Source of the DNA: a virus
Lineage: Duplodnaviria > Caudoviricetes
DNA: 64,000 nt
Virus record (IMG/VR): IMGVR_UViG_2885526491_000007
Location: 1-64,000 of that record
Reading direction: 5' to 3' (one strand)
In this document: piece by piece, positions 10,218 through 63,399 of the stretch
Position numbering within the stretch: position 1 is the first letter of the stretch
Layout of the letters: each line of letters opens with the position of its first letter
Notes under the pieces: generated by a model
What the model was told of the DNA's origin: nothing
What the model saw: the letters and a program-made list of their open reading frames with translations, nothing else
The model's database searches: none
Made by a program: the position numbers and the translations under genes

Positions 10218-10348
10218 CAATGTAAATACAAAGCGGTTAATCTGAGTACGGCTGTCTCAATTCAACTACAATGTAATACAAACTTATAAATCGATTATAT
10301 CATCAAATGTGTTAAAAGTACATATTTTTATTCTTAATGTATATTTTA
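10218..10348. repeat. Imperfect direct repeats upstream of parM (parC-like) plus promoter
   Basis: CAATGTAAATACAAA (~10218), CAATGTAATACAAA (~10269), weaker copies ~10303 and ~10335; TGTACT-17-TATAAT on minus strand. Confidence 0.45.
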
Positions 10349-26737: not shown

Positions 26738-26933
26738 CTCCTCAACTGATTTTTATTCCAGTTCTATTTGTCTCTAACCTACTTTAAATAAAAGGTACAT
26801 TTTACAGAGTCTACTGTAGAGGTTGAATTACAAATCCATACTCTTTTGCTCTATAAGCTGCTTTTTGATCAAACTTACTCGAACCACTTATTTTAAATTC
26901 TATATTTTACATTATTTTCAATAAATCGTACTT

Positions 26934-27863
26934 TTGGACCATGTGAACAATGGGATTAAGAAATATACTTACATTGATAGAAATATTAACTATAAAAGGA
27001 GTGTATTACTGTTGTTCAAACTAGCAAAAACCTCTCTTGTATTGTCTATTGCTCTTTTCAGTTCTCTATCTTTTGCGTCTTTTGGCTCAGCCGAGGCTGC
27101 AAACAATGATGATGTTGCCCTATTCTATCTAAACCATGCAAAAGTTTCGGGCGATACTCCAGCTGAACCCATCCAAAATAAGTTCATTAAAGAAGAAGAA
27201 CTCAATCCCACCATTGAAAGATCAACCACAATCCCTGTCTATGATGAAAATGGAAACTTGTTGAATGAATATACAATTGAAAAAAACACTGGTGCTGAAT
27301 CAAAAACTTCTCTACTTCAAACAGGTAAGCTCGTAAACGTTCTTGTTGCTGTGGACGAAGAATATAGAAGCGCCCACAGCGATTGGCAAACAAGGGTATC
27401 CAATATAGTTGAAAGTGCAGATGATCCTTTTAACGAAAAATTTAACATAGATCTTAATATATCTGCATATAAGTATTGGTTCTCAGAAGGAAAAAATGCT
27501 TCAGAGTTACTAAGTCATTTAAAGGGTGACGGAAAAGATTCCTATGATTTAGTTATCGGTTTTACAGGTGAGTCGGACTTTTATGGAGTAAACGGTGATT
27601 TTATTGGTGGGCTCGCATATATGTACTCCAGTAAGCCCCCATATGCAGGCTATAGTGTGGTAAGCAACCAATCATTATCGGGAACAACGCGCGCTTTACA
27701 ACATGAGGTCTCGCATAATTATGGTTTGGACCATGATACAGCAGCCTCCACACCAATCTGCATTATGAATTATAATACAATGTATAGTACTACCACTTGG
27801 CATACTGCTCACTTCAATGAATTAGCTCTGCGAAAACTTTGGTACGGAACAACTTTTAACTAA
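26934..27863 (+). CDS. Secreted zinc metalloprotease (metzincin, reprolysin-like)
   Basis: Signal peptide (true start likely ~27010, after AAAGGAGTG), HEVSHNYGLDH and Met-turn CIM. Confidence 0.85.
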   Translation: MDHVNNGIKKYTYIDRNINYKRSVLLLFKLAKTSLVLSIALFSSLSFASFGSAEAANNDDVALFYLNHAKVSGDTPAEPIQNKFIKEEELNPTIERSTTIPVYDENGNLLNEYTIEKNTGAESKTSLLQTGKLVNVLVAVDEEYRSAHSDWQTRVSNIVESADDPFNEKFNIDLNISAYKYWFSEGKNASELLSHLKGDGKDSYDLVIGFTGESDFYGVNGDFIGGLAYMYSSKPPYAGYSVVSNQSLSGTTRALQHEVSHNYGLDHDTAASTPICIMNYNTMYSTTTWHTAHFNELALRKLWYGTTFN

Positions 27864-27871
27864 ATAATCTT

Positions 27872-27908
27872 AATTGTGCCATAGGTGTTGTCAACTTATG
27901 GCACAATT
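27872..27908 (+). repeat. Inverted repeat / hairpin
   Basis: AATTGTGCCATA...TATGGCACAATT. Confidence 0.6.
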
Positions 27909-27916
27909 TCTCTGAG

Positions 27917-28234
27917 GTGAAATCAATGAACAATAAATTTGTAATTATTTTAATTCTCATGCTTCTCTTGAGTGGCTGTTCAAATCATTCTGCAAATAAT
28001 CTACCCAAAGGAGATGACCCAGTATCCTGGATTAATTTTGAAGGCAAAAAGTACGAATTTTACAAAACAGATGTTTCTGTTGATGATTCTCTCATTTCAA
28101 CAAATGAAAAAACTGATGCAGACGATGGAGTAGAAAGTAACTTAGAAATATTTAAAGCGGAAAGTGAAAATGGTGTTAGTTTGTTTATTCAAGATCCAAT
28201 TAGTAAGGAATGGGTTGAATATAGGTTAAAGTAA
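27917..28234 (+). CDS. Lipoprotein
   Basis: Lipobox LSGC after hydrophobic signal. Confidence 0.8.
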   Translation: MKSMNNKFVIILILMLLLSGCSNHSANNLPKGDDPVSWINFEGKKYEFYKTDVSVDDSLISTNEKTDADDGVESNLEIFKAESENGVSLFIQDPISKEWVEYRLK

Positions 28235-28568
28235 ATAATAGATACCATTTGATTGTCTATTTCGTTACGAGTAAAATGGAGATAAAATTTGACTTTCATT
28301 AACATTTCATCCTCTAAAAACCCTTATATATCAATACTTTTCTGACTCAAGTAAAGCTAAAATCTCATGATAGGCAGTCATTCGACCAAATTTCCTTCCA
28401 TGACTACATCCCATCTCATAGCAATCATCAAAGTTGCCTCCTGACCAGTCTTCAGGGTTGTAGTCTTCTTCAATGTCCTTATTGATGTCATCGATATACT
28501 CTTGCAATGTCTCAATCTTATTTCTCAGTGCTTCAGCAAGATCCATATAAACATCTCCTTGAATTGTT

Positions 28569-45161: not shown

Positions 45162-45220
45162 TCTTTCTCTCGATATCTCCCATTTACTATTCCAATATTC
45201 TGATGAAACTGTACTTTTAC

Positions 45221-46402
45221 CTAGAATATCGGTACAGCTTTGACTTCAGTCCATTTGATATATTCTTCTTTCGGAATTTCACGTACTACATAGCAGCCAT
45301 TTGCCAAGATCTTGTCACTGTCCTTTTTAGTGAAGTTATCATAAGGTATAACAACTTCTATGAGTACACCTTTATTAAAATAATTGGACTTGTCGATCTC
45401 AAGTTTTTCACTAAAGTATAGATGTTCATTCTTAGGTACATTTATTTCACCAAACTTATACTCGTACTTACTATCATAATGACTAAAGTATTGACCATCT
45501 CGTTTCTCAACGAACTTGTAGTATTTCTGCGATTCTATGTATTGTTTTCCATCAATCTCGATCATATTGTTAGGTTCATTTTCAAATTCTCTAAGAGTGT
45601 TTTTCTTAGTAATTCTGTATGTATGTTCTTTAATATTCACTACTCTAACTGGCCCTTTTACAATCACATCAAGAATATCCTCTACGTCATCGTATTTAAT
45701 TTCTTTAGGTTTTTCAAAATAGTCTTCACTCATTGCAATATTTGCAATCTTATCAATGATCTTGCTTAGGCTAAATGCTTCACCTTCTTCAAGTTCAACA
45801 AGTTTGTCGTAGTTGATACCATACATTCCACCAAGATGCTGTTTCAATTCGTCTGTGTTAGTGATACATAATTCCATGCAACTCAGTGCAACTCGCAAAA
45901 ACTCAGGCTTAGAAATGTTATATCCCTTATCCTTATACTTCTGAACTCTCAGCAACGAAACAATTGGAAAGTCAGTGTTCTTGTTAAACTTCAAAATTCG
46001 TTGTGCATTGTGCTTCAAAAAGTCTTCATGCAATACAAACTGTTCTGTTTCAAAATCAAATGCTCCCATACATACTGTGTAGTCAAAAGTATTAAAGATA
46101 TCTTCTGCTCTCTCAAAATACTTAAAGTGAATCATTTGAATTTCCTTGTCATCTACTCTTACTAACAATGCCTTAGATGTTAGAGCATTTACCCAGTCAT
46201 TACTGTCATCATAAATCTCTTCAATCAACTCGGCTAGAGACTCTTCGTCTCTGAAGTACAAATCAATATCATTTACCGGATTGTTGCTGAAAATACTTGT
46301 GATTGTTCCTCCTGCTATGTATGCTTTCTGCTGCTTCAGAGTATTCACCAAGCTTGTTCCTAAATAATTGTACAATTTGTTCTTTTCGAAAATATAATCC
46401 AT
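45221..46402 (-). CDS. Nucleotidyltransferase (polA/CCA head-like)
   Basis: IAGG...DIDLYF, FDYTVC. Confidence 0.7.
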   Translation of the reverse strand: MDYIFEKNKLYNYLGTSLVNTLKQQKAYIAGGTITSIFSNNPVNDIDLYFRDEESLAELIEEIYDDSNDWVNALTSKALLVRVDDKEIQMIHFKYFERAEDIFNTFDYTVCMGAFDFETEQFVLHEDFLKHNAQRILKFNKNTDFPIVSLLRVQKYKDKGYNISKPEFLRVALSCMELCITNTDELKQHLGGMYGINYDKLVELEEGEAFSLSKIIDKIANIAMSEDYFEKPKEIKYDDVEDILDVIVKGPVRVVNIKEHTYRITKKNTLREFENEPNNMIEIDGKQYIESQKYYKFVEKRDGQYFSHYDSKYEYKFGEINVPKNEHLYFSEKLEIDKSNYFNKGVLIEVVIPYDNFTKKDSDKILANGCYVVREIPKEEYIKWTEVKAVPIF

Positions 46403-46746
46403 TTAATTAATTCCTCCTTTAGATTCATCTTACCATACATTTTAGTAATTGTACATATTTTTATTCTTAAATAATTCTAATTAAATCAACCTTTTACAAA
46501 GATTCTTGATGATATATTTGCGGCATCGCCAAAAGTTTTAACAAACACGAAATCCAACACCTCGAAATAGCGGTTAAATTGGATATCTGCCCACTTATAC
46601 AACAAGACTGGTTCGGTATATTTTGTAATTCATTGAGATCCATCAGATATGCTTCTGAACAAGTGGTTCCCCTTTTTAGATACTCTATGTAGGTAATACG
46701 TTCCGTTCTCATGTTCAATGACTAGATCCACTCTTTGCACTTTAGT

Positions 46747-47295
46747 TCACCTCCTTCCTTTAGGACGAAGAAACATCCACAATCTTCGATACCACTTTCT
46801 TGGTGGGTTAGCTATCTCTTCAAAAACTTCCTGATGCAATAAAGACTCAAAATGTATCAAAGAATCTCTTGCTGGAAAAATGATGTTTTTTTCGTCCTCT
46901 TCTATAAACACAACCTGTCCCTTATTTTCATGATAATAGGGTTCAACAAATTTAAAAAAGCTATTAACTTTTCCAACTAAGATTTCAAATGTATTAACTG
47001 TAGTCATAGAGTTAAATAAGTGCTTCCTGCTCTTGTATGCCTCTCTGAAGTTTGAAAATTCCTGTTTGGCATCTTTGATATCTTGCCTAGTTAATGCGCT
47101 TGATATAACCATCTCAACGAAACCAACAAGCTTAAATAACGAAGGAGAGACTCTATCATATGCTGCTACCTTCATTTCTCGTTTAATACGAATTCTTTCA
47201 ATTTCCAAACTCGCCTTCTTTTGTCTTGTGACATTAATCGTTGTCAACAATAACCCTGCTGATGATACCACTAAAGTCCATATAGGTACATTCAT
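46747..47295 (-). CDS. Hypothetical membrane-anchored protein
   Basis: N-terminal TM helix. Confidence 0.6.
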   Translation of the reverse strand: MNVPIWTLVVSSAGLLLTTINVTRQKKASLEIERIRIKREMKVAAYDRVSPSLFKLVGFVEMVISSALTRQDIKDAKQEFSNFREAYKSRKHLFNSMTTVNTFEILVGKVNSFFKFVEPYYHENKGQVVFIEEDEKNIIFPARDSLIHFESLLHQEVFEEIANPPRKWYRRLWMFLRPKGRR

Positions 47296-47855
47296 ACCAA
47301 TTTCTCCCCTTTCCTGTGAAAGTAAACTTTCTTAGAGATTATCTGCATCTGGAACAGATCTATCGACATTAGCTGTTACTTCTATGTCGCTGCATACTCT
47401 ATTGACTAATTTTCTTGCATCGTCTGCTGTAACTTCAAATAGTTCAGCTAGTTTATTTAAAGTTACATGACCTAGTAAATATAAACCCATCAGCTCGATT
47501 GGATTCAACTTCTTAATGTCTGTGTGATAATAATCGATCATCAAATTATTCGACTCTTTAGATGAGAACATAGTTCACCTCCACTCTGTGTGAAAGAAAG
47601 ATTTTATATAAACTTAAAATCACCCTTCTTGAATGTGAGACCACCATATGAGCTGCTAAGTTGTTTTGTTGCGACATCATCAAACTCCACTAGGTATAAG
47701 TCTTCAGAATTGCTTGTTCGGATCGGGTTTTCTTTTATGGTTCCTGATTTTCCAATAGCTTCTTTCCAAACTGTTGAATCGTTAATTATAACTCTTTTCT
47801 TCATACTATTTCACCCTTTTCTCCATGAAAGGAAAATTTGATCAGAATACTCTTA

Positions 47856-48221
47856 TTATTTTGTTTTTCTGCTTAAATGAATAGCGATTGAGTTAGTCAA
47901 ATCATCGGTATCGAACGATCCATTTGCAGCCTCAAGTTTAACGCCGTACTGTTCGATTTTTTCTTTAAGCTCAATCATTTTTGCAACATTTCTAAACAAA
48001 ACACTTGGTTGTGATGTAATGATTTTTTGGAATTTACCACTTTTCGAATCTTCAATTAGTTTAATTAGACTTGGTCTAGTCTCGTTAAGACCGCTATAGC
48101 CAAAATCCTCATAAACACCAACCAGTTTATCATTAACACCTAACATCTTCATACATTCTCGTTCCTGTGATTCAGTAGTTTGTTCTTTTGTTGCCGCTCT
48201 GTAGTAAAAAACTGTCTTCAT
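47856..48221 (-). CDS. Stand-alone serine-resolvase N-terminal domain lacking the catalytic Ser
   Basis: YYRAAT, YEDFGYSG...RPSL; SVLFR in place of DRLxR. Confidence 0.7.
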   Translation of the reverse strand: MKTVFYYRAATKEQTTESQERECMKMLGVNDKLVGVYEDFGYSGLNETRPSLIKLIEDSKSGKFQKIITSQPSVLFRNVAKMIELKEKIEQYGVKLEAANGSFDTDDLTNSIAIHLSRKTK

Positions 48222-48257
48222 TTTATCTCAACCTTTCTAGATCAAATGTACGTTTCT

Positions 48258-48896
48258 TTAAGATATGTGATTCTCAAGTTTCTTCTTCCAATCTGAGATT
48301 GTATCAAAAACAAATTTTGAAGTTTCTACAGACATTTTATTTACGGCTTCATGTTTTTCTAAAATTTTGAATACCTTATATGGAGTAATTGCATCAATTA
48401 TTATTTTGTTCTCATATTTTGGTATATCATATTTTATATCATTAAACACATCGTAATTGAAACGGTTCTTATAGCTAAATACAAATGTTGAATTTAGTTT
48501 ATGATCTCTTCCTCTCTCCTCGAACGCAGAAAGAGTCGAAGGATCTATTTTTTCAAGATTAGATTGAATCTCATCATATAAATAGATTAAAACTAAATCA
48601 GCAAACACTTTCTCTTGTTTATCTTTTTTCGTTTCATCTTCAAGTCTTTTAATCTCAAGTTGTTCTCTTTCATGATTTAGTTGTTTAATGGCTATATCAG
48701 TTTGCGATTTAGCAATTAATAGAGCTATAAAGGCCGCAGCTATACCTCCAGCGTAACTACCAAAAAAACTAACCCAGGTTTCAGAGTCTCCTATTGCTAT
48801 AGGATTTGGAATCCATGCTAGCACATTGATGAGAATAGGAATCAATATAACAGCAATCCAATATTTAAGTGGTATACCAAAAAACTCTTTATTCAT
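48258..48896 (-). CDS. Hypothetical membrane protein
   Basis: Two TM helices, WVSFFGSYAGG. Confidence 0.65.
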   Translation of the reverse strand: MNKEFFGIPLKYWIAVILIPILINVLAWIPNPIAIGDSETWVSFFGSYAGGIAAAFIALLIAKSQTDIAIKQLNHEREQLEIKRLEDETKKDKQEKVFADLVLIYLYDEIQSNLEKIDPSTLSAFEERGRDHKLNSTFVFSYKNRFNYDVFNDIKYDIPKYENKIIIDAITPYKVFKILEKHEAVNKMSVETSKFVFDTISDWKKKLENHIS

Positions 48897-48939
48897 TTCA
48901 GTTCATCTCCAAGTCACTCACAATAAAATATTTGTTTGA

Positions 48940-49632
48940 TTAAATCTTAATCATATCTGTATACAACAACCTCTGCCTATTTGGTAATTCAAAGTCATGA
49001 TGAAAATGACCAAAATACCATTGCTTATATTCTGCCTTCTGTTCAATACCGTAGAAGTAAGGATGCATCTCATCTCGATCCATTCTAATATTACAACGCT
49101 GCTCAATGTATTCCAATGCTGTAGTGGAACAGGTATGTGTCAGTATGTAATCCACTTTCCAGTTGTGCTTCTCTAAATTATTTAATCCTTCTTCATATTC
49201 CTCCTTTGACGGCATTTCACGACTCCACCATGACTTTCCTTCCTTGCGATACTCTTTGTCGTGTGAAGCAGCTCCACCAAACGTAAAGATCTTCTTACCT
49301 TCAATCTCAAAAACCTGTCCACGCATCAGATGAATAACGCTGTCGTTAATTCTATGTACTTTACCACCATTCCAAATCTCCACCGGATACTCTTCAAGTA
49401 AATCGAAGTTCTCATGGTTCCCATCAATAAACAGTGTCATAAATGGCTTAGTCTTATTCAGCCACTTAAGCCAGTATTGATCCTCTTTACTTCCATCCCA
49501 TATTAAACCGAAGTCTCCAGCAATGATTACATAGTCATCCTTAGTCATATCTCTTTGTTGTGGAAAGTTCTTAGTATTGAGTCGCTTGTTCACACTAATT
49601 GTTCCATGAATGTCTCCAGTAATATTGATCAT
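48940..49632 (-). CDS. Calcineurin-like metallophosphoesterase
   Basis: GDIHG, GDFG, GNHE, GHFH. Confidence 0.9.
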   Translation of the reverse strand: MINITGDIHGTISVNKRLNTKNFPQQRDMTKDDYVIIAGDFGLIWDGSKEDQYWLKWLNKTKPFMTLFIDGNHENFDLLEEYPVEIWNGGKVHRINDSVIHLMRGQVFEIEGKKIFTFGGAASHDKEYRKEGKSWWSREMPSKEEYEEGLNNLEKHNWKVDYILTHTCSTTALEYIEQRCNIRMDRDEMHPYFYGIEQKAEYKQWYFGHFHHDFELPNRQRLLYTDMIKI

Positions 49633-50378
49633 TTATGTCTCCTATCATTTTAGAGTCTCGATAATTTCAATTCCATTAATATCACAATCATAAAACTTAT
49701 CTTTATCATCATAATAAAAAATTGCTGACTTCTTAACTTTGAGTTTAAATTTACTGTTAGACTGTTCTTCTGTCCAAACAGCGATACCATCTTGTGTATT
49801 TGACATTATAAGATCGTAACCATCATTATCTGTATAAGCAAGAAAGTAATCAAGGCTTTCAAGCTCATTCATTTTTTCTATCACAATGTCTAATTTATTT
49901 TCAATGGCCCAGTCTTTCAACTCTATCCAGTTGCTCAATTTGAAACCTCCTTATTTTAAATGAAAGTCATATTTCATTAAATTCCGACTTATTTGAGTCA
50001 TCAGTTATTTCACCTATACCTCCTCTAATACTCTTAAGGTCGACATGGACTTCAATCACTTCGTTCGGGTCAAGTTGTTTCATTTTGAGTGATTTATTGC
50101 CATTTTCGTCTAGCAGCCAAGCTTCTCTAACTGAAAACTTTTTAATCAAATTCATACCCTCCCTTTCCTTAAATCTCACATTTCATATTGTTTCTTTTTC
50201 AAATAATAAAAGAAAAGATTAAGATGATGGAAAGAAGAATCCATGTGAAATATCCATAAGTTTATCCATCCATTTCTCGAACAAAAAGACCGCATTTTGT
50301 CGTGATATCTAAACCAAAACCGATGATAAATAGCCACAATCTCACCCCTATTATGTAAAAGATTCGTTTTACCCGATC

Positions 50379-50882
50379 TTACTCAACCTTGTACTCTTGT
50401 TCTTCCTTTTTCCGCTCATGTTTCTCTAAATAAAATTTGTGGAGAAACCTTCTTTTAATTGTGTCATTTAAATCCTGCTTTATCCAAGGCCTTGCTTCAT
50501 TTTTAGATCTTTCCCAATCATGCTTCAAAAGCGTACCAATACAATAACGAAACTCTTTCAGCACTTCTTGTGCTCTATTCCCTTTTTCGATTTCTTCTAA
50601 TAATTCTCTGATTCTGTTATCTAGTCTATTGTCAGAAGTAAACCTTAGAGGATTTAAACTCAATATCAGATGTGTGATGACACCCGCCTCTGTCTCCTTG
50701 TCTAGATCATATTTACCAGAATATATTTTCGAAGCGCTAATTTTAACAAACTCTCTCCACTTTGCTCTTTCATCCGTTATGTACTTTAACGATTGATTCT
50801 TATCATTGCTTATTTTGTTTATAATGGCTGCGATTACAGTAGCAGAAACGGAAGCCGTTATTATCGTTTGCAATATCCCCAT
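50379..50882 (-). CDS. Hypothetical protein
   Basis: Bounded by sites 50356 and 50901. Confidence 0.65.
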   Translation of the reverse strand: MGILQTIITASVSATVIAAIINKISNDKNQSLKYITDERAKWREFVKISASKIYSGKYDLDKETEAGVITHLILSLNPLRFTSDNRLDNRIRELLEEIEKGNRAQEVLKEFRYCIGTLLKHDWERSKNEARPWIKQDLNDTIKRRFLHKFYLEKHERKKEEQEYKVE

Positions 50883-51520
50883 AAGATTCTCCCCTTATTA
50901 TGAAACTACTCTTTTACTTAAACTTCGTTTCAATAACTTCAAAAACTTCTCCACATTCAACTTTTAATTTAATCGCAGCATTTTCTGCTCTTACAAAAGT
51001 AGTATATTTCTTTGCTGTAATTTCACTTCCAACTGTCACTGCTATGTATTCGTCCTCCCTTGCTAACTTTTTCTTTCTTAAGAAGTATTCTGTAGAGTTC
51101 AATCCAAACTTACGCATCAATACGAACATACCATTCCCTCATTTCCTTAACGACCAGTGCCACTCAGACAATAATTACAAATCGTCTCACCTTTGATAAC
51201 TCTCCATCCTTGATTCCTTAAAGCCTTCTCAGCAATCGATTTGTTACCTCTCATTTCTGCTGGATTAATATCTCCACTAGCCCAATTACCACACCTGTCA
51301 CAGCATGTATCATAATATCTTATTAAATTAAAACTCAATAAAGAAATCCCCCTTTTATCTATGAAAGACTAATTTTACTTTCTCTTATTACCATTATAAT
51401 CCTTTAATCATCCTGTTCAACACAATATCCTATGTATAAAAGCTGCGTCTCTTGTCATTAACAATTATTTATAATGTTATTTTATTATCTTTATTCTTAA
51501 AAGTCAAGTAACAAATCACT

Positions 51521-51883
51521 TCATGTCTTAGTTAGATCTATTTTCATGTAGTCAGCCAACATTACTAGCACATCTGTTCTAACCCTGCTCATTAGTGGGT
51601 TCATTTGATGCTGATATTTACGGATTGAGTAAGAAATAAACAAATTGTCTTTAGTTCTTCTCTGTTCGATGATTTTAATGTCACGGTCTCTTAATGTTTT
51701 CTTCAACTCATATATATCAGCGGTTATTCTATCTTGCAAAGAACTTAAATAAAATTTCAACTCTCTTTTTAATATGACACTGCTCTCATCTATCCTTTTC
51801 TTGTCTTCTTCTATAACGTCTAACAGTAACGGCATCTCAGCATATTTTTTCACCAACTCCAACTCTTCAGCACTTTGTTTCAT
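51521..51883 (-). CDS. Hypothetical protein downstream of yolD-like gene
   Basis: GGAGGA RBS before MKQSAEE. Confidence 0.6.
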   Translation of the reverse strand: MKQSAEELELVKKYAEMPLLLDVIEEDKKRIDESSVILKRELKFYLSSLQDRITADIYELKKTLRDRDIKIIEQRRTKDNLFISYSIRKYQHQMNPLMSRVRTDVLVMLADYMKIDLTKT

Positions 51884-52233
51884 TATTCTAATCCTCCTCC
51901 CGATAATCTGACAGCAACTAAACTCTTTATGTCGATCCATTCGTGCCCATTTTCCCATTCGATTCTAATCTTCTTTCCTAACTCATTAACCTTTGAAACA
52001 ATCCCACTTACAGCCCGTTTCGAATTCGATTCAAAAATCTCAAAGTATGCTTCTTCAGTATATCTATATGATATTCCTATGTTTTGATAAATAACTTCCC
52101 ATTCGTCCTCGTGTAAAAGTGGTTTAGATAAATCGTTATCTCTTGAACGATGTTCAATGATTCTTTCTTTATGTTGTGGCAGCATCATACGACTTGATTC
52201 CCACAGCCCATTTGCCTCCAGTTTTTTGCTCAT
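51883..52233 (-). CDS. YolD-like protein
   Basis: WESSRMMLPQH; coupled to UmuC-like gene. Confidence 0.8.
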   Translation of the reverse strand: MSKKLEANGLWESSRMMLPQHKERIIEHRSRDNDLSKPLLHEDEWEVIYQNIGISYRYTEEAYFEIFESNSKRAVSGIVSKVNELGKKIRIEWENGHEWIDIKSLVAVRLSGGGLE

Positions 52234-53474
52234 TTATAGTGTCCTCCAATTTTATTTGATCTGTCTATGGCTTGACCAGCAGATGTAATTGAGCTTGCCC
52301 GTAAGATTGCAATATCTCCAAAACGATCCTTAATGTCATCCATTACCTTATCAATCGCACGTTTTTGTTCTTGATCATCGAACAATGAGAGTTGATAGGT
52401 CTCAGCATTGGAAAGATTGGACAATGATATCCCCACTCTTCGCACAGGCTGACCATCCCAATGTTGCCTAAAGATTTGTTTAGCTATCTTACACACGTCT
52501 ACAGTTATGTTAGTGGGATCTTGCAACTTAACTTGTCGACTGAAACCTGTAGGATGATCAAAGTCTGCTCCCGATAAACTCATTGTAACTACACTACCCA
52601 TTAATCTCTTTTTACGTGCACGTCTACAAACCTCAGTACAGATATCTTGAATGACTACTTCAATCTCCCAAGCTTCTGTATAATCCCTAGGCAGCGTCAT
52701 ACCGTTCCCAATATCCTTTTGTACACTATGAGTATTAATTGTTACTGGAGAGTCATCCAGTCCATTTGCCACTCTCCAAATAACCTCTCCGTTTACGCCC
52801 CATTTGCTTCTCAATTTTGACAGAGGAGTATTCGCAAGCTGTCTTATTGTTCGAATGCCCATTTTCCATAAATGTTTTTCCATCCTAGACCCAATACCCC
52901 ACATATCACGAATTGGTTTATCGCCTATGTGCTGATGAAGCTCTTCTTTTTTAAGGAAGAATACTCCACCTTCAATTTTCTTAGCGATCAGGTCACAGCA
53001 AAGCTTACTCATCACTTTATTTGTTGAGATGCCAGCTCTTGCATAGACTCCCGTTTCATTGTAAATCTTGTCTTGAATCTGCTTTGCTAAATCAATGGGA
53101 TCATTGCCAAAAAGGTGTAGTGATCCTGACACGTCCGCGAAAAGTTCGTCGATGCTATAGGGTTCCACTAAGTCAGTAAACTCCTCAATAATGGACATAA
53201 TTTGAGTTGAAACTTCGATGTATTCCTGCATATGTGGCCTTACAATAATCAGCTCAGGGCACTTTTGAAGTGATTGCCATAATGGTTCAGCGGTTGACAC
53301 GCCTTTTGCTTTAGCTAGAGGACATGCAGCAAGTATGATTCCTGAACGCCTTGCTGGATCTCCTGCAACTGCCAACGGTTTGTTTTTATGTTGCGGCATT
53401 TTAGCCTTTTCTACACTGGCATAAAACGATTGCATGTCAATTAACATAATTGTCCGCTCTTTCTTCGCCATCAT
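52230..53474 (-). CDS. Y-family DNA polymerase (UmuC/UvrX-like)
   Basis: DMQSFYASVE, YSIDE, WGIG, QLSLF clamp-binding motif. Confidence 0.93.
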   Translation of the reverse strand: MMAKKERTIMLIDMQSFYASVEKAKMPQHKNKPLAVAGDPARRSGIILAACPLAKAKGVSTAEPLWQSLQKCPELIIVRPHMQEYIEVSTQIMSIIEEFTDLVEPYSIDELFADVSGSLHLFGNDPIDLAKQIQDKIYNETGVYARAGISTNKVMSKLCCDLIAKKIEGGVFFLKKEELHQHIGDKPIRDMWGIGSRMEKHLWKMGIRTIRQLANTPLSKLRSKWGVNGEVIWRVANGLDDSPVTINTHSVQKDIGNGMTLPRDYTEAWEIEVVIQDICTEVCRRARKKRLMGSVVTMSLSGADFDHPTGFSRQVKLQDPTNITVDVCKIAKQIFRQHWDGQPVRRVGISLSNLSNAETYQLSLFDDQEQKRAIDKVMDDIKDRFGDIAILRASSITSAGQAIDRSNKIGGHYK

Positions 53475-53496
53475 TATCACTCCCGTAGTTATATAA

Positions 53497-53538
53497 GAAC
53501 ATTTGTTTGTATTAGTATTATACACCGAACAGACGTTC
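53497..53538. promoter_or_regulatory. LexA/DinR SOS boxes
   Basis: GAAC-AGAC-GTTC (53527-53538) and GAAC-ATTT-GTTT (53497-53508) flanking a TATAAT. Confidence 0.8.
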
Positions 53539-53630: not shown

Positions 53631-54134
53631 ATGAAGGACAAGTTAAAGGGGTTAGTGATTGGTATTCTGATCGGATCAACAATTACAGGGGCAACAGCAT
53701 TTGCAGCTACTACAACACCAATTAAAGCAGCAATCCAGAAAGTCAGTCTTTATGTAGATGGAACTAAGAAATCCACAACTGATGCAATAACGTACAAGAA
53801 CACTACATATATCCCAGTTAGAAGTATGAGTAATGCAATTGGTGAGAAGGTTTCATTAAAAGGGGATAATCTTTATATAGGCAAGCAGCCGAAGTTTATT
53901 GTAAATGAGGACAATGCCTACAAGTATGTTTATGCTAAGATCAAAGTTGATGCTGATAAATACAAACTGGGGTTCATGGACGAGGGATATAGTGATGATG
54001 GGAAATATTTTACGATCAGAGCTTATGAAGATCATCAAGAATACATCGTCACTTATGGATTTTATTATGTAGAATTGACTACAGGAAATGTTTATAAATT
54101 TGACCTTTTCTCTGACGGTTTAATAAAACTATAG
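53631..54134 (+). CDS. Secreted protein with copper-amine-oxidase-N/stalk-like domain
   Basis: Signal peptide ending AFA; YKNTTYIPVR. Confidence 0.75.
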   Translation: MKDKLKGLVIGILIGSTITGATAFAATTTPIKAAIQKVSLYVDGTKKSTTDAITYKNTTYIPVRSMSNAIGEKVSLKGDNLYIGKQPKFIVNEDNAYKYVYAKIKVDADKYKLGFMDEGYSDDGKYFTIRAYEDHQEYIVTYGFYYVELTTGNVYKFDLFSDGLIKL

Positions 54135-54160: not shown

Positions 54161-54192
54161 TTAAAACTTGTCTTTCATTGAAACAATCATAT

Positions 54193-56817: not shown

Positions 56818-57790
56818 TTTCTACCTCCCCAATGTTAGTCAAACACGAATTTCATTCTGACTTGTTGAAAGCAATCCTTCGGTATATACCAGTCATATGT
56901 ATTTGATTAATGATGTGATTTCGAATCTTCTTTTCTGAAAGATATGATTTTACTGGTGTGTCTGTTTCCTCAGCAAATTTTAGCAATTGTTCCTTTGTGA
57001 ATGGATCAAATACTACTTTTAATTCTTCAACAGATAGATTGTAGTAATATTCTAGTGTCAACAAATGAATCTCCTCCTTTCCAATAAAATAGACCTTTTA
57101 CAAGATTGTATACCATGCCTCTAGATTACTTTCAGTTAGCGGAACTACTTCGTTTAAGTGCTCTCCATCCTGATTGCAATATACAATTGCACTGTCTCCA
57201 AACCTTCTAGTTATGTACCACTCCTCATGAAGTCCGTATTCTGCTTTTGCTACATTTCCATTAGTCAGCAGATCTAAAATCCCCGCCAACGTCAACATTT
57301 TAATCACTCCTTATTATAAATAGCCAACAAATGTCCCTTTTGGTGCAATTTCAATCTGATCAATAAAGTCTCTCTTTGATAAATACTCAATATCAAGCTT
57401 ACTCCTGTATCCAATTAAGCCTTTAATTACAGGCGATCTATATGCCACGATACCAAATTTATTTAGCACTTTTTCACACTTTTCATAGTCTTCAGAAAGT
57501 CTAATTATGTACTCCATCTACTAAGCTCCCCCTCTTATCTACCAAAGAAGTCATTGATACACTCCTTCTTAAAACTTTCAAGAGATATTCCATAGTCGCT
57601 ATCTAATTTATTTTTATACACACTCTTCCAACCAAACCAATACTTCATTTTCTTAAAAATACTCAGATTGTATTCTGTTGTATATAACTCAACTCCACCC
57701 ATACGACCCGTTGATACTCTTGACTGTCTAACTTTCATTAAGTATCGTGTTCCATTTTCTACCCAATACTTTTTATACAAACTTGTCCCC

Positions 57791-58237
57791 TCACAATCTG
57801 TACAATGTCACTTCATAATCGCTGAATACTTCTTCAATAATTCCATAAACAACTTTCCAATCTCCATTAGCTAACCCACAACCAATGTTATATGGAAGTG
57901 CAACTGAATAACCAAACTTCTTTGCCCGTAACTTCAATGACTCAAGCGCAGACTTCAAAGCAGCATAGTCTGTGTATACAACGTTCCTATTTCTTCCATA
58001 TGTAGTCTGTCCAAATATATTAGCTATAACTCTCTTATTGTTTACCTTGGTAGTCCAACATAGACCCAGTAATCTATCACCATATTCATGACATGCCAAC
58101 TGGTAAAACGGATAAGCATCTGGGTACATCTGTTTGATTGCTTTGGCGATTCCTGATCCCCAGACACCTTTAGTATTTGTTTGATGCCCAATGATATCTT
58201 CAGTAGCATCAAGCAAGTCACCATCGATTATTTTAAT
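57791..58237 (-). CDS. Macro domain (ADP-ribose processing) protein
   Basis: IDGDLL, HQTNTKGVWGSGIA, PYNIGCGLANGDW. Confidence 0.85.
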   Translation of the reverse strand: MKIIDGDLLDATEDIIGHQTNTKGVWGSGIAKAIKQMYPDAYPFYQLACHEYGDRLLGLCWTTKVNNKRVIANIFGQTTYGRNRNVVYTDYAALKSALESLKLRAKKFGYSVALPYNIGCGLANGDWKVVYGIIEEVFSDYEVTLYRL

Positions 58238-58459
58238 CCTTCACATTGTCCTTTCTTTGATGGGCATATAATTCATAGAACTTTGTAAATAATTCACCAC
58301 TAGATGGACTTCGTTTAATTTCAAACTCAATTTCTCTTGTTCCTAATTCCAACATAATCTCTTCTTTTATGTCTCCAAGTTCTTCGAGTTGTTTTTCATG
58401 TAATAAATAATAGTCCAAAGCTTATTCTCCTTTCCTGTGAAACGTGCCTTTTACTTAGA

Positions 58460-58825
58460 CTATGATTGCAAGTCATCTACTCTAACTAAGCCCCATTTCT
58501 CTTCGTCGTCTGGTGTTGCTTCTCTGACGAACTTTGCCTGAACATGAGGACACAAACACCCATCTTCTTCTCTTACAATCATTTCAATAAGATTGTCTGC
58601 ACACCATGATCCCTTATTGTATCTAAACTCAACATCTTCATCCTTCCAAGACTCCGGTACGTCCATTACCATCCTAATAGTAAAATCCATAACAACTGTT
58701 CTGTTTCTAATTACACATTCGGAAGTATGTGACTCTCCAATCAAGCTATGGCAATAAAAACAACGATCTGGTTTACCTGCTGGTCTTGCTGCATATTCAG
58801 TTACAATCCAATCTTTTCTTCTCAT
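58460..58825 (-). CDS. Hypothetical Cys-rich phage protein
   Basis: Bounded by sites 58438 and 58847. Confidence 0.65.
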   Translation of the reverse strand: MRRKDWIVTEYAARPAGKPDRCFYCHSLIGESHTSECVIRNRTVVMDFTIRMVMDVPESWKDEDVEFRYNKGSWCADNLIEMIVREEDGCLCPHVQAKFVREATPDDEEKWGLVRVDDLQS

Positions 58826-59425
58826 ATAGCTACCTCCAATTTTTGATGAAACAGATCTTTTACATAAATATATTTGTGGTATATTTACTCTTAATTATTC
58901 TTCTGTAAAGCATCTAATGCGGATCTCATCCTTTGTACGGTTTCGTCAAGCACTTGCTGCGCCCAATATTCCAGAGGATAGTGTCCAACAAATTCTTCAT
59001 CTTCTTTTAACATCTCAATAAAAGATGAATGACTAATAATGACTCTTACTAAACTTTCCTCTAAAGGTGTTGCATCGGTTATGTACTGGATTAACATTTC
59101 AACAAAAATATGATCGTTCAATGAACTTGTCCTCCTAGCTCTTTTCTATATTTACTATCTGCTATCTCAGGGAAGATTGCTACGAATAAATCTATTACAT
59201 CTAAAATTTTACGTTCTCCGTTTGTTGCAACATAGAATCCAAAGTTTTCACTATGCTTAGTTACTTTTATGCCCAATTCTTCAGCTAATATCATTGTCTT
59301 GTCTAAATCAACTGATTTGATGTCTTTCAATTTATGTATCGCCTCCTAATTAAAGTAGTGGTATAACAACTTGTTAAAGTCATCATACCACTACTTTTAT
59401 AATTTGTACATATATTTATTCTTAT

Positions 59426-59938
59426 TTAACTGATTCTCAAGTGTTTTTTGTCATTTACCAGTACTGCACCTTCAACTTCCAATCCATTTTTCACGGCTTT
59501 AAGAAGTGCCTTACTATCAATTTTAGGCTCCTGTTCAATTTTAAACGTATCTGGGATCTTCGCTGGATCAATTATATTGATTGATGGTGGATTTACTTGG
59601 AGTTTTACTTTAAAGGTTCCAGCATTGACCTTATCGATCTTACTGACCTCAAGTGTATTTTGCATGTAGCTCTTTAGACCATCAAACTTGTTCTGAAGAT
59701 ACTTACGTTTCTTTTCAAGTCGCTTTTCCTCGTTTTTAAAAGCTTCAATATCGCCTTCGATATTCTTCATGAATTTCACAATGTTCTCAACTTTAACTTC
59801 AACCTCATCTTCAATTGATTCAAGTGTCTCAATATACATCTGCAAATCATCTTCAGTCATATCCTCATCATCCCAAGCTGCATCAACAAAATGATTAAAG
59901 CGTCTGTACTTCTCTCCAAGCTCATAAAGTTTACTCAT
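59426..59938 (-). CDS. Siphovirus Gp157-family protein
   Basis: MSKLYEL...ETLESI...NPPS...EGAVL...LRI. Confidence 0.85.
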   Translation of the reverse strand: MSKLYELGEKYRRFNHFVDAAWDDEDMTEDDLQMYIETLESIEDEVEVKVENIVKFMKNIEGDIEAFKNEEKRLEKKRKYLQNKFDGLKSYMQNTLEVSKIDKVNAGTFKVKLQVNPPSINIIDPAKIPDTFKIEQEPKIDSKALLKAVKNGLEVEGAVLVNDKKHLRIS

Positions 59939-60011
59939 TCATTATTCTCCTCATATATGTATTATTCTTGATAAATTCTATGTTTCATTGAAATATTTCA
60001 TCATGAGGCAA

Positions 60012-61079
60012 TCAGATAGTATCGTTACTAAAATCAGATTCTATGTCTTCTATTGTTTGATCAGCAAGCTCGGAAATAAATTTAATCTTTTCCTCTTTAG
60101 GAATGTTCAATTTACAAATCATCTCAATTTTCTTGTCCATCCTGATATTTCGTTGCATTATAAACGCTTTCTGCTGAGGATATTGGAAGTCTAGATAATA
60201 AAAGTGTCCATATTGATTTTCTGTCATTTGGTCTTTAAATAGTTCAGACAACTCAGTATTAAACTTTAGAAGATATGAATTCTTCTTAACGAAATTCTTA
60301 TGGATTTCTTTAAGATTTTTCGTCGGAATGAGCTTAAACAATTCTTTAGACTGACTAGTACTGATATTCTGATAGTCTTGTATTTTAAAGAAGTATTCTG
60401 AATGACTCTTCTTGTTTAATATTGAATCATAGATCAGTTTGAAGTATTTATCTTGAGTAAGTAGTGGATTCTGCAACAGTAGATTCCATGGAATTTCAAC
60501 ATATGATTCCTTCTCAAATAGATTCTTTAGATTCCCTTTGTAGCGGCTAACAGAGGAGAAATGAAAACCCATATTGTGCTCAAAGATACAACCATTACAC
60601 ACGTACATTTTATAAAGGTTGCTAAAAATCATATCTAACTCACTTTCATTGTAGTCATACGGAAGCTTATAACTTTTTGCCCATAGTGGATATTCGATAT
60701 CAAAGAGATCAAACAGAGCAAATATGATATCTTTATCTGGATAATATTTAACAATCAATTTAAACCATTGGGGAATCTCATCCTTATGCATCCCCTCAAA
60801 GTCAACTGAACTAGATTCTAGGTTTAAATGTGCAATCAATACAGAAATATTATCTAAAGTAATCTTAGACTTAAGAACCTCAAACAACTTCATTTGTTCA
60901 GGTTTCTTGTTTGTCTGAGTTAATTCGATGATCTTTTGCTCACTCAACCTATTGACTTCTCTTAAAGAGTGCAACTCATCGAGGTATTCATTAACCCTCT
61001 TTTCAACCTCTGTGTTCACCAAAGACATAAAACTGCTCTCGAAACTCTGATAGCTTTCCTCATCATATTCTAAGTACAA
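60012..61079 (-). CDS. Hypothetical phage protein
   Basis: Bounded by sites 59972 and 61101. Confidence 0.7.
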   Translation of the reverse strand: MYLEYDEESYQSFESSFMSLVNTEVEKRVNEYLDELHSLREVNRLSEQKIIELTQTNKKPEQMKLFEVLKSKITLDNISVLIAHLNLESSSVDFEGMHKDEIPQWFKLIVKYYPDKDIIFALFDLFDIEYPLWAKSYKLPYDYNESELDMIFSNLYKMYVCNGCIFEHNMGFHFSSVSRYKGNLKNLFEKESYVEIPWNLLLQNPLLTQDKYFKLIYDSILNKKSHSEYFFKIQDYQNISTSQSKELFKLIPTKNLKEIHKNFVKKNSYLLKFNTELSELFKDQMTENQYGHFYYLDFQYPQQKAFIMQRNIRMDKKIEMICKLNIPKEEKIKFISELADQTIEDIESDFSNDTI

Positions 61080-62217
61080 TTTATTAACTCCTTTTCTCAG
61101 TAAAATTTACATTTGATCAAGATTCGTTCGACGTTAAGTCGATACCAAAGAAATATTCGCTGTTTGCCCCTCTTACACTATCAGGTGTGTCAATAAGTTC
61201 GATTCTGCTTCCATTTCCAAATTCAATATAACCATTGTTGCCTTTTTGACTTCTCAAAAACTTGCGAATCTCAATCAATTCTCTGAAATTACGTTTCATC
61301 ATCATCTCATCTACTTCATCCATAATTTGATACATCGCTTCCTGATGATCACTCCGTATAGCCGAAGGACAATCCAATGTGTTTGGAATAGCAGCATTAT
61401 GTAGTTCTTCGCTTTCAGGGCAACATTGATCAAATGCATTCCACAAACAGTGATTGTTATTGCAATGCATTTGAATCACCTTCAGACACAGACATATCCG
61501 ACAAGCTTTCAGATAGTTCCTTATATTTGTCGGTAAGTTGTCTTGCATCCTCTTTTATTTTTTCGTCATCATATGTATGCATTTTTAGGGTTACACCATT
61601 CAGGGCATCTTTTGTCATCATATTACTTCATCCTCCAATTCTCTAAGAAAGTCCTCTTTTACATAGTTATTTGCTTTAGTAACTCATCATTGTGCTCCAT
61701 TAATTCCGTATATTTTTCGAGCACATGTTTTAATTCCCCAAGATCTATAAAATCAGAAGCTAAGCTTGTTCCAGTTTCTCTGTTGAAAATAATGAATTTG
61801 TTATTATCAAATATCATCTCATGCCTTCCTGAACCTACTGATGAGTAAATGACGTTATCCCAATTAATCATTTCTACACTCCTTTCATTTTCCATGTCAA
61901 AAAATTTAACTGCGAACAATCCAATAAACGTCAAAACAATTGTCCCAGCAGATATTTTTTGTTACGTAGCCAGTATCTTTGAACTCTCGGAAGAATCCGT
62001 ATTTAATATCTGCCTTTTCGATATCCGTCAGATACTTCTCAGCATCTATCTTCATATGTAATTCCTCTACACTGTTGGCGTAAAATCCACCTTCAGTCCC
62101 ATCAGTTTTACCATAGAGCACTGTGTACTTGTATAGTGAAGCTACTGTATTCTCAAAAATACGTTTCAGGTCATGAGAATATTTAAAACGCTCCATGTTT
62201 AATCTAATGGACTTTAT

Positions 62218-62589
62218 TTAATTACCATCATCATGTCGTCTTGTTGCTGCATGCCAATCACAGAACATTTCTACGATATCAAACAGGTTCATGTCTGCAA
62301 TTCCTCTTGGGTAGTGCTCAGGGTGATGTGAGTTGTTAGCATAATGATGTTTAAGTGCCACACCCATTTTTTCAAGATATACCTTGTATTCGTCAGACCC
62401 ATAAGTACTCACCTTGAGTTTAGGAGTGTATTCAGTGAAAACCTCAAGTTCGGGAGATTCTAACTTAGATTTATCATGTACAAGTGCTCTTTCAGTCAAT
62501 TCCTTTGTAAACTCCATCATGAATTCTCTAACCTGACCAATGTGCTCCTTGGTGTCTCGTATACAATGTTCTTTTGTGTATTCGTACAT
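62218..62589 (-). CDS. DUF5662-like (HD-like) phage protein
   Basis: HDKSK, HHY..NSHHPE, EMFCDW. Confidence 0.7.
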   Translation of the reverse strand: MYEYTKEHCIRDTKEHIGQVREFMMEFTKELTERALVHDKSKLESPELEVFTEYTPKLKVSTYGSDEYKVYLEKMGVALKHHYANNSHHPEHYPRGIADMNLFDIVEMFCDWHAATRRHDDGN

Positions 62590-63399
62590 TTTATTATCCC
62601 TTTCTCTGTAAATTTTCTATTTCATTAACTTATTGAAGTACTCATGAATGAGCTCATCATCAGACATAGCCTTCTCAATAATGCATTTTAAGTCTTTAAT
62701 TTGAATTTCTTTAGATCCGTTTTCTTCAATTTTAATCAATAAATCATAAAAGAACTTACCCGTGTTAGCAGAACCTAACTTAAATGCCTTATTTATAGTT
62801 GAGTATTCTGCCATTTCTTTAATAATCTCTATATAAATCTTATCCAGTTCACCTGTAGTGTCTCTATTCAACTTCAATTCTCCTTTTCTCTGTGAAATTG
62901 CGATTTGATCTGAATTACTTTTCATCTGAATTGGTTTGAAAACAGTGAAAATCATCGTTACACGAAAAGATGGCTTCGGTTCGAATGTTCTTTTTCTCAC
63001 ACAATCCATCACCTTGAAACTTACCATTGGTATAGTCGTCCTTATAATAGATGCAAAAATCACAGAGTGCTCCGACCATCTCGCATTCGCTATCACAGTA
63101 TACAGCCATTCATTTTATCTCCTTATTTCTAATTATTTATTGTGATTTAATTTGCTTAGCTTAGCTTTTTAATCATATGATCTAGTGTATTTCTTAAAGC
63201 AATCGCATCAGCAAGGGAAAAGTCTATCCCACAAAATCGTGAATTGTCTTTAATTGTTACGTAAAACTCATCATCTCTCCCATGCTTCATCGCATTCTCA
63301 ACATTGTCATGATTCCAAATTAACTGCAGCAAATTGCCATTGCTATTGTTTATTTTTAACTGTAAACCTTCCTGATCTAAATATTGAGTGCTTGACATA

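Follow-up and report, generated by a model that had tools for sequence, protein, structure and literature searches.

Palindromic sites with individual six-base centres divide the early genes of an SPbeta-like phage into exchangeable slots

Introduction

In this study we describe a short palindromic element that recurs between the early genes of a tailed phage (Duplodnaviria; Caudoviricetes; IMG/VR record IMGVR_UViG_2885526491_000007) and that separates these genes into slots whose contents differ between related phages. The window, meaning the whole stretch of DNA that was analyzed, is the left 64 kb of this 134,573-bp virus record and shares its numbering; the densest run of the element lies at 45204-51377. 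The phage, present as a prophage, is a distant relative of SPbeta. Only 27 of its approximately 236 predicted proteins have blastp matches in SPbeta, including the YonO RNA polymerase (44% identity), the HU-like protein YonN (66%) and YomM (59%), and the homologues of YopR/MrpR, YopQ and YopP are 27-30% identical to their SPbeta counterparts. Both Pfam domains of MrpR are present in the MrpR homologue. A megablast search of the region against phage records gave no match. From 3.5 to 101 kb of the record, nearly every gene lies on the minus strand. For comparison we used four related IMG/VR viruses, here called G002, G003, G004 and G005, which share common ancestry, so that counts taken over them are not independent.

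Results

An earlier note on this DNA had listed twelve palindromic sites at 45204-51377, and the motif is present at all twelve positions. Eight of them carry the exact core T[ACG]AAA-N6-TTT[CGT]A, in one a variable position is occupied by T, and three contain a single mismatch. The genes of the run all lie on the minus strand. As the note had stated, the intervals hold unrelated genes, from a nucleotidyltransferase-like protein, a resolvase domain and a metallophosphoesterase to small open reading frames (ORFs). For 11 of the 12 sites, including a decayed one at 50170, at least one relative has a counterpart of equal centre in the corresponding position.

Beginning from the left, the core at 45204..45219 is exact (score 21.6 on the matrix described below) and reads CTGTAC at its centre on the plus strand, and G002 and G004 have the same centre in collinear position; the stop of gene 45221-46402 is on one side of it and the next downstream gene on the other. 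This gene (45221..46402, minus strand, 393 amino acids (aa)) falls into phrog_18122 with weak similarity to nucleotidyltransferases, has homologues in three viral contigs at 62-83% identity and has a putative promoter of its own upstream, of the SPBRE type discussed below. The next core, 46481..46496 (centre TCAACC), has a T at one variable arm position and scores 14.5; its centre occurs also in G002, and a block of G002 homology begins at this core. Two minus-strand ORFs of 74 and 182 aa without a family match fill the cassette at 46494..47295. The core at 47317..47332 (centre GTAAAC, score 14.9) has one mismatch, in an outer core base, and its centre is found in all four relatives with differing flanking genes. 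Single minus-strand genes of 79 aa (47332..47571) and 66 aa (47604..47804) lie on the two sides of the exact core 47591..47606, the centre of which, GAAAGA, occurs also in G004 and G005.

The exact core at 47826..47841 (centre GGAAAA) is present in all four relatives; taken together, these have at least three unrelated genes downstream of it. In our phage it adjoins a minus-strand gene for a 121-aa protein (47856..48221) that consists only of a serine-recombinase catalytic domain (PF00239, E 1.2e-17). The protein has Ala in place of the catalytic Ser (N-terminus YRAATKEQ) and no DNA-binding domain, and we do not propose it as the enzyme acting on the sites. The core at 48242..48257 (centre TGTACG, score 14.9) again has one mismatch in an outer core base; the centre is found in G004, and a homology block with the compared sequence L009 ends here. 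Beyond it lie a minus-strand gene for a 212-aa protein with a weak match to phrog_16113 (48258..48896), which the earlier note called a membrane protein, and the exact core 48924..48939, whose centre TATTTG occurs also in G005. The following cassette (48940..49938, minus strand) encodes a metallophosphoesterase of 230 aa (PF00149, phrog_1649) and a 97-aa ORF, and it is bounded by the exact core 49961..49976 (centre GTCATA), which is present in all four relatives. The esterase gene directly follows the GTCATA site in G003 and G005; a different small gene intervenes in our phage and in G002.

The decayed core at 50170..50185 (centre CTCACA) has AAA changed to AAT and falls under the matrix threshold; it is intact at the matching place in G002, G004 and G005. 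After it come the exact core 50356..50371 (centre GATTCG, found in G002 and G004), a single minus-strand gene of 167 aa (50379..50882), and the exact core 50901..50916 (centre CTACTC), which G004 carries with an unrelated upstream flank. Two small minus-strand ORFs of 71 and 63 aa (50914..51338) precede the exact core 51362..51377 (centre GACTAA). Homology to G002 crosses this last core and ends just past its TTTCA, and the downstream genes differ. The second dense run announced by the earlier note is also real: nine cores, at 56839, 57085, 58438, 58847, 59972, 61101, 61646, 62609 and 62893, span 56839..62908, and most of their centres are shared with G002/G004, TCTATG being present in all four relatives. 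Between the two runs, and likewise with palindromes on either side, the early array contains a gene for a Y-family (UmuC/YolE-like) polymerase (51883-53525, minus strand; 37% identity to YolE of SPbeta), and ahead of it a small ORF occupies the place of yolD.

The element is far more frequent than expected by chance. There are 36 exact cores in the window against an expectation of 4.9 +/- 2.6, and none of 100 dinucleotide-preserving shuffles reached 36. When the whole record is scanned with a symmetric 30-bp matrix, 77 sites emerge (1.8 in shuffles), among them 11 of the 12 listed ones; the matrix was trained on sites of the same genome, so that its count is partly circular, which does not apply to the counts of the exact pattern. 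Of the record's 71 exact cores, 66 fall within 7-101 kb and 57 are intergenic, whereas only 15% of the record is intergenic. Typically a site follows a stop codon and precedes the ribosome-binding site of a minus-strand early gene, with the next start codon 17-27 nt past the core, and the upstream gene often uses the inner-arm TRA as its stop codon. Some sites, such as that at 66689, separate genes with convergent ends and have no start codon downstream.

In full the element comprises 28 bp in an 11-6-11 arrangement, TYTnnRTRAAA-N6-TTTYAYnnARA. The same half-site, TYTnnRTRAAA, forms both arms, and this arm consensus holds in our phage and in SPbeta. The arm adjoining the downstream gene is somewhat better conserved, and its ARA runs into an extended Shine-Dalgarno sequence. 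We found no covariation between the variable positions of the two arms; therefore the element consists of two independent half-sites on duplex DNA and is not an RNA or single-stranded DNA hairpin. The core of Xer/dif-type tyrosine-recombinase sites is laid out as a centre of 6-8 bp enclosed by inverted arms of about 11 bp, and our sites have this layout. Part of the half-site may resemble the left arm of B. subtilis dif.

It might be supposed that the sites act as RNA, as processing sites or translational operators, or as promoters for a phage RNA polymerase. The fixed distance to the ribosome-binding site and the merging of the right outer ARA with the extended Shine-Dalgarno sequence would suit such roles. 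However, a hairpin finds no support in compensatory changes, as no variable position shows selection for pairing and no Rfam family matches the sites. We rejected a promoter likewise: sigma-70-like promoters are not enriched at the sites (27 against 27.5 expected), the geometry would place the start of the transcript inside the Shine-Dalgarno sequence, and the early promoters carry a separate box. The sites at convergent gene ends such as 66689 have no start codon to serve, and the conserved unique centres would be left without explanation. We therefore hold an action as RNA or promoter to be very improbable.

The signal lies in the six-base centres. In none of the five genomes do two sites carry identical centres, although about two identical pairs would be expected in each, and no centre is palindromic. 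Pairs of centres with at most one mismatch number 13 in our phage, against 33.4 +/- 5.6 expected from the position-specific composition, and the four relatives behave alike; near-matches to the reverse complements of centres are depleted in the same way. Across the five phages there are at least 130 distinct centres. Between genomes the centres are conserved: of the 77 centres of our phage, the four relatives share 60, 67, 38 and 41 (4-5 expected), and those shared are collinear in 59/60, 67/67, 38/38 and 41/41 cases. None of the 77 recurs in SPbeta.

The centres are also better conserved than the surrounding DNA. In 62 pairs of orthologous sites, matched by flank homology alone with the centre ignored, identity is 97.8% in the centres, 71% in the two variable arm bases and 84.5% in the flanks; the centres are identical in 57 of the 62 pairs against 22.6 expected (p about 8e-20). 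Such a constraint is compatible with a role of the centre in the choice of a partner site, without proving that this is its cause.

A few plus-strand genes interrupt the minus-strand array. Sites stand on both sides of 27012-28234 (within 26789-28298) and of 66309-66641, and a third such gene, 53631-54134, has a palindrome on one side only, at 54162. The two sites around an inverted gene carry different centres. For the opposite-strand gene 66309-66641, between the sites at 66228 and 66689 (to 66704), we considered the insertion of a circle and rejected it: this would predict equal centres, and the centres differ.

The genomes are highly mosaic, with about 40% of the compared DNA aligning even with the closest relatives. 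The order of shared genes is nevertheless kept: 79/82, 77/78, 46/48 and 41/42 best-hit pairs are collinear in the four relatives. We tested the flanks (600 nt) of the sites with shared centres by tblastx on both strands and by blastn. Neither flank is detectably homologous in 10, 14, 22 and 27 of the shared-centre pairs, and one flank only is homologous in 26, 33, 16 and 12. Relatives keep the flanking sites around differing genes. At the level of proteins, the linkage of neighbouring genes is kept in 10 of 100 informative comparisons across sites and in 97 of 251 across junctions without a site (odds ratio 0.18, p 4e-8), with the same direction in all four relatives.

The earlier note had compared the run to an integron cassette array, in which an integrase would excise cassettes and reinsert them in new orders. 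The short, co-oriented and mostly promoterless genes between repeated sequences resembling recombination sites do recall such arrays, and the part of the interpretation in which the sites split the early genes into exchangeable units stands. However, no defining feature of an integron is present. The only tyrosine recombinases reach no more than 22-30 bits against TIGR02249 (cut-off 265), and both are encoded beyond the window, over 50 kb away from the array. The IntI/attI/Pc platform is absent, and the 28-bp sites have neither attI nor attC anatomy, the latter being imperfect inverted repeats of 57-141 bp that fold as single strands. Because the order of genes, like that of the sites, is strictly conserved across relatives, which the note itself had named as grounds for refutation, integron-style shuffling is refuted, and we give this explanation virtually no weight. 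The pattern is one of replacement inside fixed, individually labelled slots and not of excision and reinsertion in new orders.

The points of exchange can be located closely, since homology blocks begin or end within the 16-bp core. In clean one-sided pairs, defined by one flank with at least 85% and the other with at most 45% identity, the change of identity falls inside the core. In the 16 pairs with a common downstream flank, the far arm's variable base stays at the background level (0.56 against 0.53); in the 18 pairs with a common upstream flank its value is intermediate (0.67 against 0.43). The clearest case is a single-gene segment of 679 bp at 88674-89352 of the record (L014:4674-5352), which is 99.9% identical to G002 81867-82545 and begins with the first base of one core and ends with the last base of the following core, in surroundings that are unrelated or only 71-74% identical to G002. 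This segment has the look of a very recent exchange.

Crossovers of this kind might also arise if the sites were passive linker islands in the sense of Susskind and Botstein, used by general or phage homologous recombination (a Sak4-like annealase, a RecJ-like nuclease) with no dedicated enzyme. The crossovers do map onto an island of identity, many breakpoints lie elsewhere, and the phage encodes a RecJ-like protein together with other recombination and replication proteins. Repeated PeSL motifs serve T4-type phages likewise (PMC2839356, PMC4122927). On the other side, the dyad-symmetric arms with their exact 6-bp gap suggest recognition by a protein dimer, and the arms fit the consensus even in unrelated incoming cassettes. 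In addition, 16 identical bases are very short for homologous exchange. We consider passive linkers an unlikely explanation.

The element is not confined to this phage and its near relatives. SPbeta carries this palindrome too, in the form TCTnnATAAAA-N6-TTTTAnnnAGA, where genes of its early cluster adjoin, and a matrix trained on SPbeta finds 39 sites there against 2.2 in shuffles. SPbeta and phi3T have 27 centres in common, all of them collinear; at 9 of these 27 there is homology on one side only or on neither, and the alignments displayed break at the edge of the core. The four IMG/VR relatives contain 70-95 exact cores each, against 6-13 for a reversed control pattern. Literature searches found no published description of the palindrome in SPbeta-like phages. 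An unrelated large phage (G001) that shares only the phosphoesterase shows no excess of cores and has no homologues of MrpR, YopQ or YopP. Phylogenetic profiling for the binding protein had no discriminating power, as this sole contig free of the motif does not belong to the SPbeta-like phages. As a separate observation, a 20-kb stretch of this 140-kb phage (L012; IMGVR_UViG_3300001528_000534, 110361-130999) contains AGAA-N5-TTCT eight times, roughly nine-fold above expectation.

Outside the window we found a gene for an Xer-like tyrosine recombinase similar to SPbeta YopP, at 104845-105885 of the record (L015:845-1885, minus strand), with Phage_integrase and SAM-like domains. All six catalytic residues (Arg, Lys, His-x-x-Arg, His, Tyr) are found in the protein of our phage and of the four relatives, all of which bear the sites. 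It resembles Xer proteins over its full length, and judged by scores of 93 bits for XerC, 78 for XerD and 60 for XerA against cut-offs of 220, 335 and 330 it is not a member of these families. In SPbeta, yopP ranks among the conserved genes. A second gene of this kind, 59% identical to SPbeta YomM, lies in the late operon at 127044-128045 of the record (L016:3044-4045, plus strand). The phage thus has two Xer-like tyrosine recombinases, the YopP-like and the YomM-like protein, beside a large serine integrase and an inactive MrpR.

We also asked how the palindrome relates to SPBRE, the operator of MrpR in SPbeta. Chromatin affinity purification sequencing (ChAP-seq) of MrpR in SPbeta gave ten peaks, all of them at SPBRE (PMC10516654), and the sequence that precedes the ten MrpR-bound genes in SPbeta is ACAAATACAAAWAATATGTATA, within sigma-A promoters. 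The counterpart in our phage is TTAAGAATAAAWATATGTAY, followed by promoter-like hexamers of sigma-A type, at about nine intergenic places; TTAAGAATAAAWATATGTAY boxes lie at 10329, 46462 and 59417 (minus strand) in the window and at 77697, 89987, 95090, 101468 and 105935 of the record. The box upstream of gene 45221-46402, TTAAGAATAAAAATATGTAC (within 46405..46475, minus strand), overlaps a putative sigma-A promoter, TGTACA-17-TAAGAT, the hexamers of which fall under the threshold of a sigma-70 promoter scan, so that we infer the assignment. This box is a probable operator of an MrpR-type repressor, and boxes of this kind probably mark real early promoters. Because they stand with promoter-like sequence at only about nine intergenic places, the early region is one of long operons in which palindromes separate the cistrons. 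The remark of the earlier note that most intervals lack an obvious promoter agrees with this layout: the short genes are mostly promoterless and co-oriented.

The palindrome and SPBRE have in common that each is a repeated element of the same phage family, and the reader of SPBRE, MrpR/YopR, is a protein with the tyrosine-recombinase fold (PMC10516654). They differ in that SPBRE, ACAAATACAAAWAATATGTATA in SPbeta and TTAAGAATAAAWATATGTAY here, occurs in about ten copies and inside sigma-A promoters, not between cistrons. We therefore rejected the idea that the palindrome is the MrpR operator, from which it differs in sequence and in placement, the genome having an SPBRE-like box of its own. G002, the closest relative, has two MrpR-like genes (C1:72280-73311 and 85647-86633), each 46% identical to the copy in our phage.

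The palindromes might still be operators for some other dimeric phage DNA-binding protein that modulates or blocks transcription within the early operons, with recombination as an incidental effect. Such a protein would fit a pair of independent, symmetric half-sites that are separated by about one helical turn and placed between cistrons just ahead of the ribosome-binding site, only in the early region. In cluster A mycobacteriophages 24-30 intergenic repressor sites provide a precedent (PMC9283540, PMC6550527). A co-transcribed ParB/DndB-like protein, YopQ, is conserved beside the repressor gene, and an SPbeta yopQ mutant lyses in stationary phase (bioRxiv 10.1101/2021.11.22.469490). However, the operator model does not predict unique, over-dispersed centres that are more conserved between phages than the variable bases of the arms, and the ten MrpR peaks in SPbeta fall on a different motif. 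We regard operators as an unlikely main role of the sites, but the operator and crossover roles could coexist.

Discussion

In this study we show that the early genes of a distant SPbeta relative are separated by dozens of dyad-symmetric sites with unique centres, that related phages hold these centres in the same order around differing genes, and that homology changes over within the cores. Because dyad arms with an exact 6-bp gap are here combined with centres that, orthogonal inside one genome, are conserved and collinear from genome to genome, and with crossovers inside the cores, we interpret the elements as crossover sites of the tyrosine-recombinase type. More precisely, they might be heterospecific Xer/dif-like sites that permit cassette exchange slot by slot, an explanation that we hold to be about evenly balanced between right and wrong.

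According to this hypothesis each site would be a double-stranded DNA target of a tyrosine recombinase, with a symmetric protein reading the two inverted 11-bp arms and the 6-bp centre serving as the address that sets partner specificity. As the centres within a genome are all different, its sites would be unable to recombine with each other, so that genes would be neither deleted nor inverted. When two genomes reside in one cell, as an infecting phage and a prophage or as two co-infecting phages, crossovers would occur only at matching centres, because related phages hold the same centres in the same order. Two such crossovers would replace the gene or genes of one slot and leave the order unchanged. 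The enzyme might be the YopP-like, Xer-like tyrosine recombinase of these phages; the Xer proteins of the host are an alternative candidate. In its broadest form the hypothesis says that SPbeta-like phages possess a built-in, enzyme-driven system of exchange, made up of about 80 mutually incompatible labelled sites and a phage Xer-like recombinase (YopP- or YomM-like), by which accessory and anti-defence genes are traded slot by slot. This broader statement is tentative, and we would sooner expect it to fail in some part than to hold as a whole.

Several observations weigh against exchange by a dedicated recombinase. A cruder test of the ends of blastn blocks showed no preference for sites (35% of site junctions against 34% of other junctions), most mosaic breakpoints lie away from sites, and 61% of the junctions without a site are broken as well. 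Ordinary homologous recombination would leave an identical picture if it made use of the 16-bp island of identity to which the crossovers are confined. The spacing of 17-27 nt to the start codon and the confinement to the early region also suit a role in gene expression. Concerning the enzyme, SPbeta YopP has Lys in place of the second catalytic Arg, the other conserved paralogue, YomM-like, likewise has His-x-x-Lys, and the YopP-like protein is a candidate whose tie to the sites we infer. Furthermore, the four relatives are of common ancestry, which limits the independence of the counts, and selection for evolvability is indirect.

How mosaic phage genomes swap unrelated genes cleanly at gene boundaries is a long-standing question. 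Linker sequences were proposed in the 1970s but, to our knowledge, few have been observed. In the case described here, conserved, individually labelled joints with demonstrable swaps occur throughout a phage family to which the B. subtilis models SPbeta and phi3T belong, and their presence in these two phages makes the question directly testable by standard B. subtilis genetics. If labelled-site exchange were true, nature would have its own equivalent of recombinase-mediated cassette exchange, and modular phage evolution would gain a mechanistic basis. Were an enzyme to drive it, this would be a new mode of programmed viral gene exchange; the conserved orphan recombinase YopP would acquire a function, and a large natural collection of orthogonal recombination sites would become available. 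If no dedicated enzyme is involved, the constraint on the centres, which are unique, conserved and over-dispersed, still lacks an explanation in current models of phage regulatory repeats.

Among known systems, two families of phage repeats have only single features in common with the palindromes. The stoperators of cluster A mycobacteriophages are also short intergenic sites present by the dozen in a temperate phage, and protein binding is one of their features (PMC9283540, PMC6550527). They are, however, asymmetric and oriented, follow one consensus and are bound by a monomeric immunity repressor, whereas the palindromes are dyad-symmetric with site-specific centres. PeSL elements of T4-type phages are repeated intergenic motifs beside variable accessory genes, at places where relatives differ (PMC2839356, PMC4122927). 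In contrast to the palindromes with their unique centres and without promoter or stem-loop, PeSL is a composite of promoter and terminator that is alike everywhere, and gene shuffling has been reported for it.

Closer likenesses are found among recombination systems. With integrons the array shares mostly promoterless, co-oriented cassettes bounded by sites of the tyrosine-recombinase type; it differs from them in the lack of IntI, attI and Pc, in sites that are not folded attC hairpins and in its fixed order. Chromosomal dif has the layout 11-6-11. The 28-bp arrangement is common to our sites, chromosomal dif and the XerH/difH, XerS and XerA systems, and the candidate enzyme scores best on the XerA, XerC and XerD models; there is, however, one dif per replicon, for dimer resolution, and the phage has dozens of sites per genome.

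In engineered cassette exchange by Cre or FLP, heterospecific lox or FRT sites have common inverted arms, different spacers make them incompatible within a molecule, and the segment between them is replaced with order and orientation kept. Our sites likewise have centres that are distinct within a molecule and stand in the same order in the partners, with differing cargo between them. Unlike those man-made pairs, they form a natural ordered series of 77 sites per genome, known from sequence comparison. In the plasmids of Acinetobacter, many Xer-type pdif sites, inverted repeats that bind XerC and XerD, are scattered over accessory regions and flank adaptive dif modules that differ between replicons; these sites resemble the dif of the host, have two different arms and are thought to use the host XerC/XerD (PMC6449649). 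The arms of the phage sites, in contrast, share one consensus, and the phage carries an Xer-like gene of its own; dif modules change their context, whereas the phage genes keep slot and order in four relatives. In conclusion, pdif sites with their dif modules are the closest natural system, and heterospecific lox/FRT exchange is the closest in logic. What is new in comparison with known dispersed Xer-type sites flanking modules is the ordered and individually labelled series, together with a candidate enzyme borne by the phage itself.

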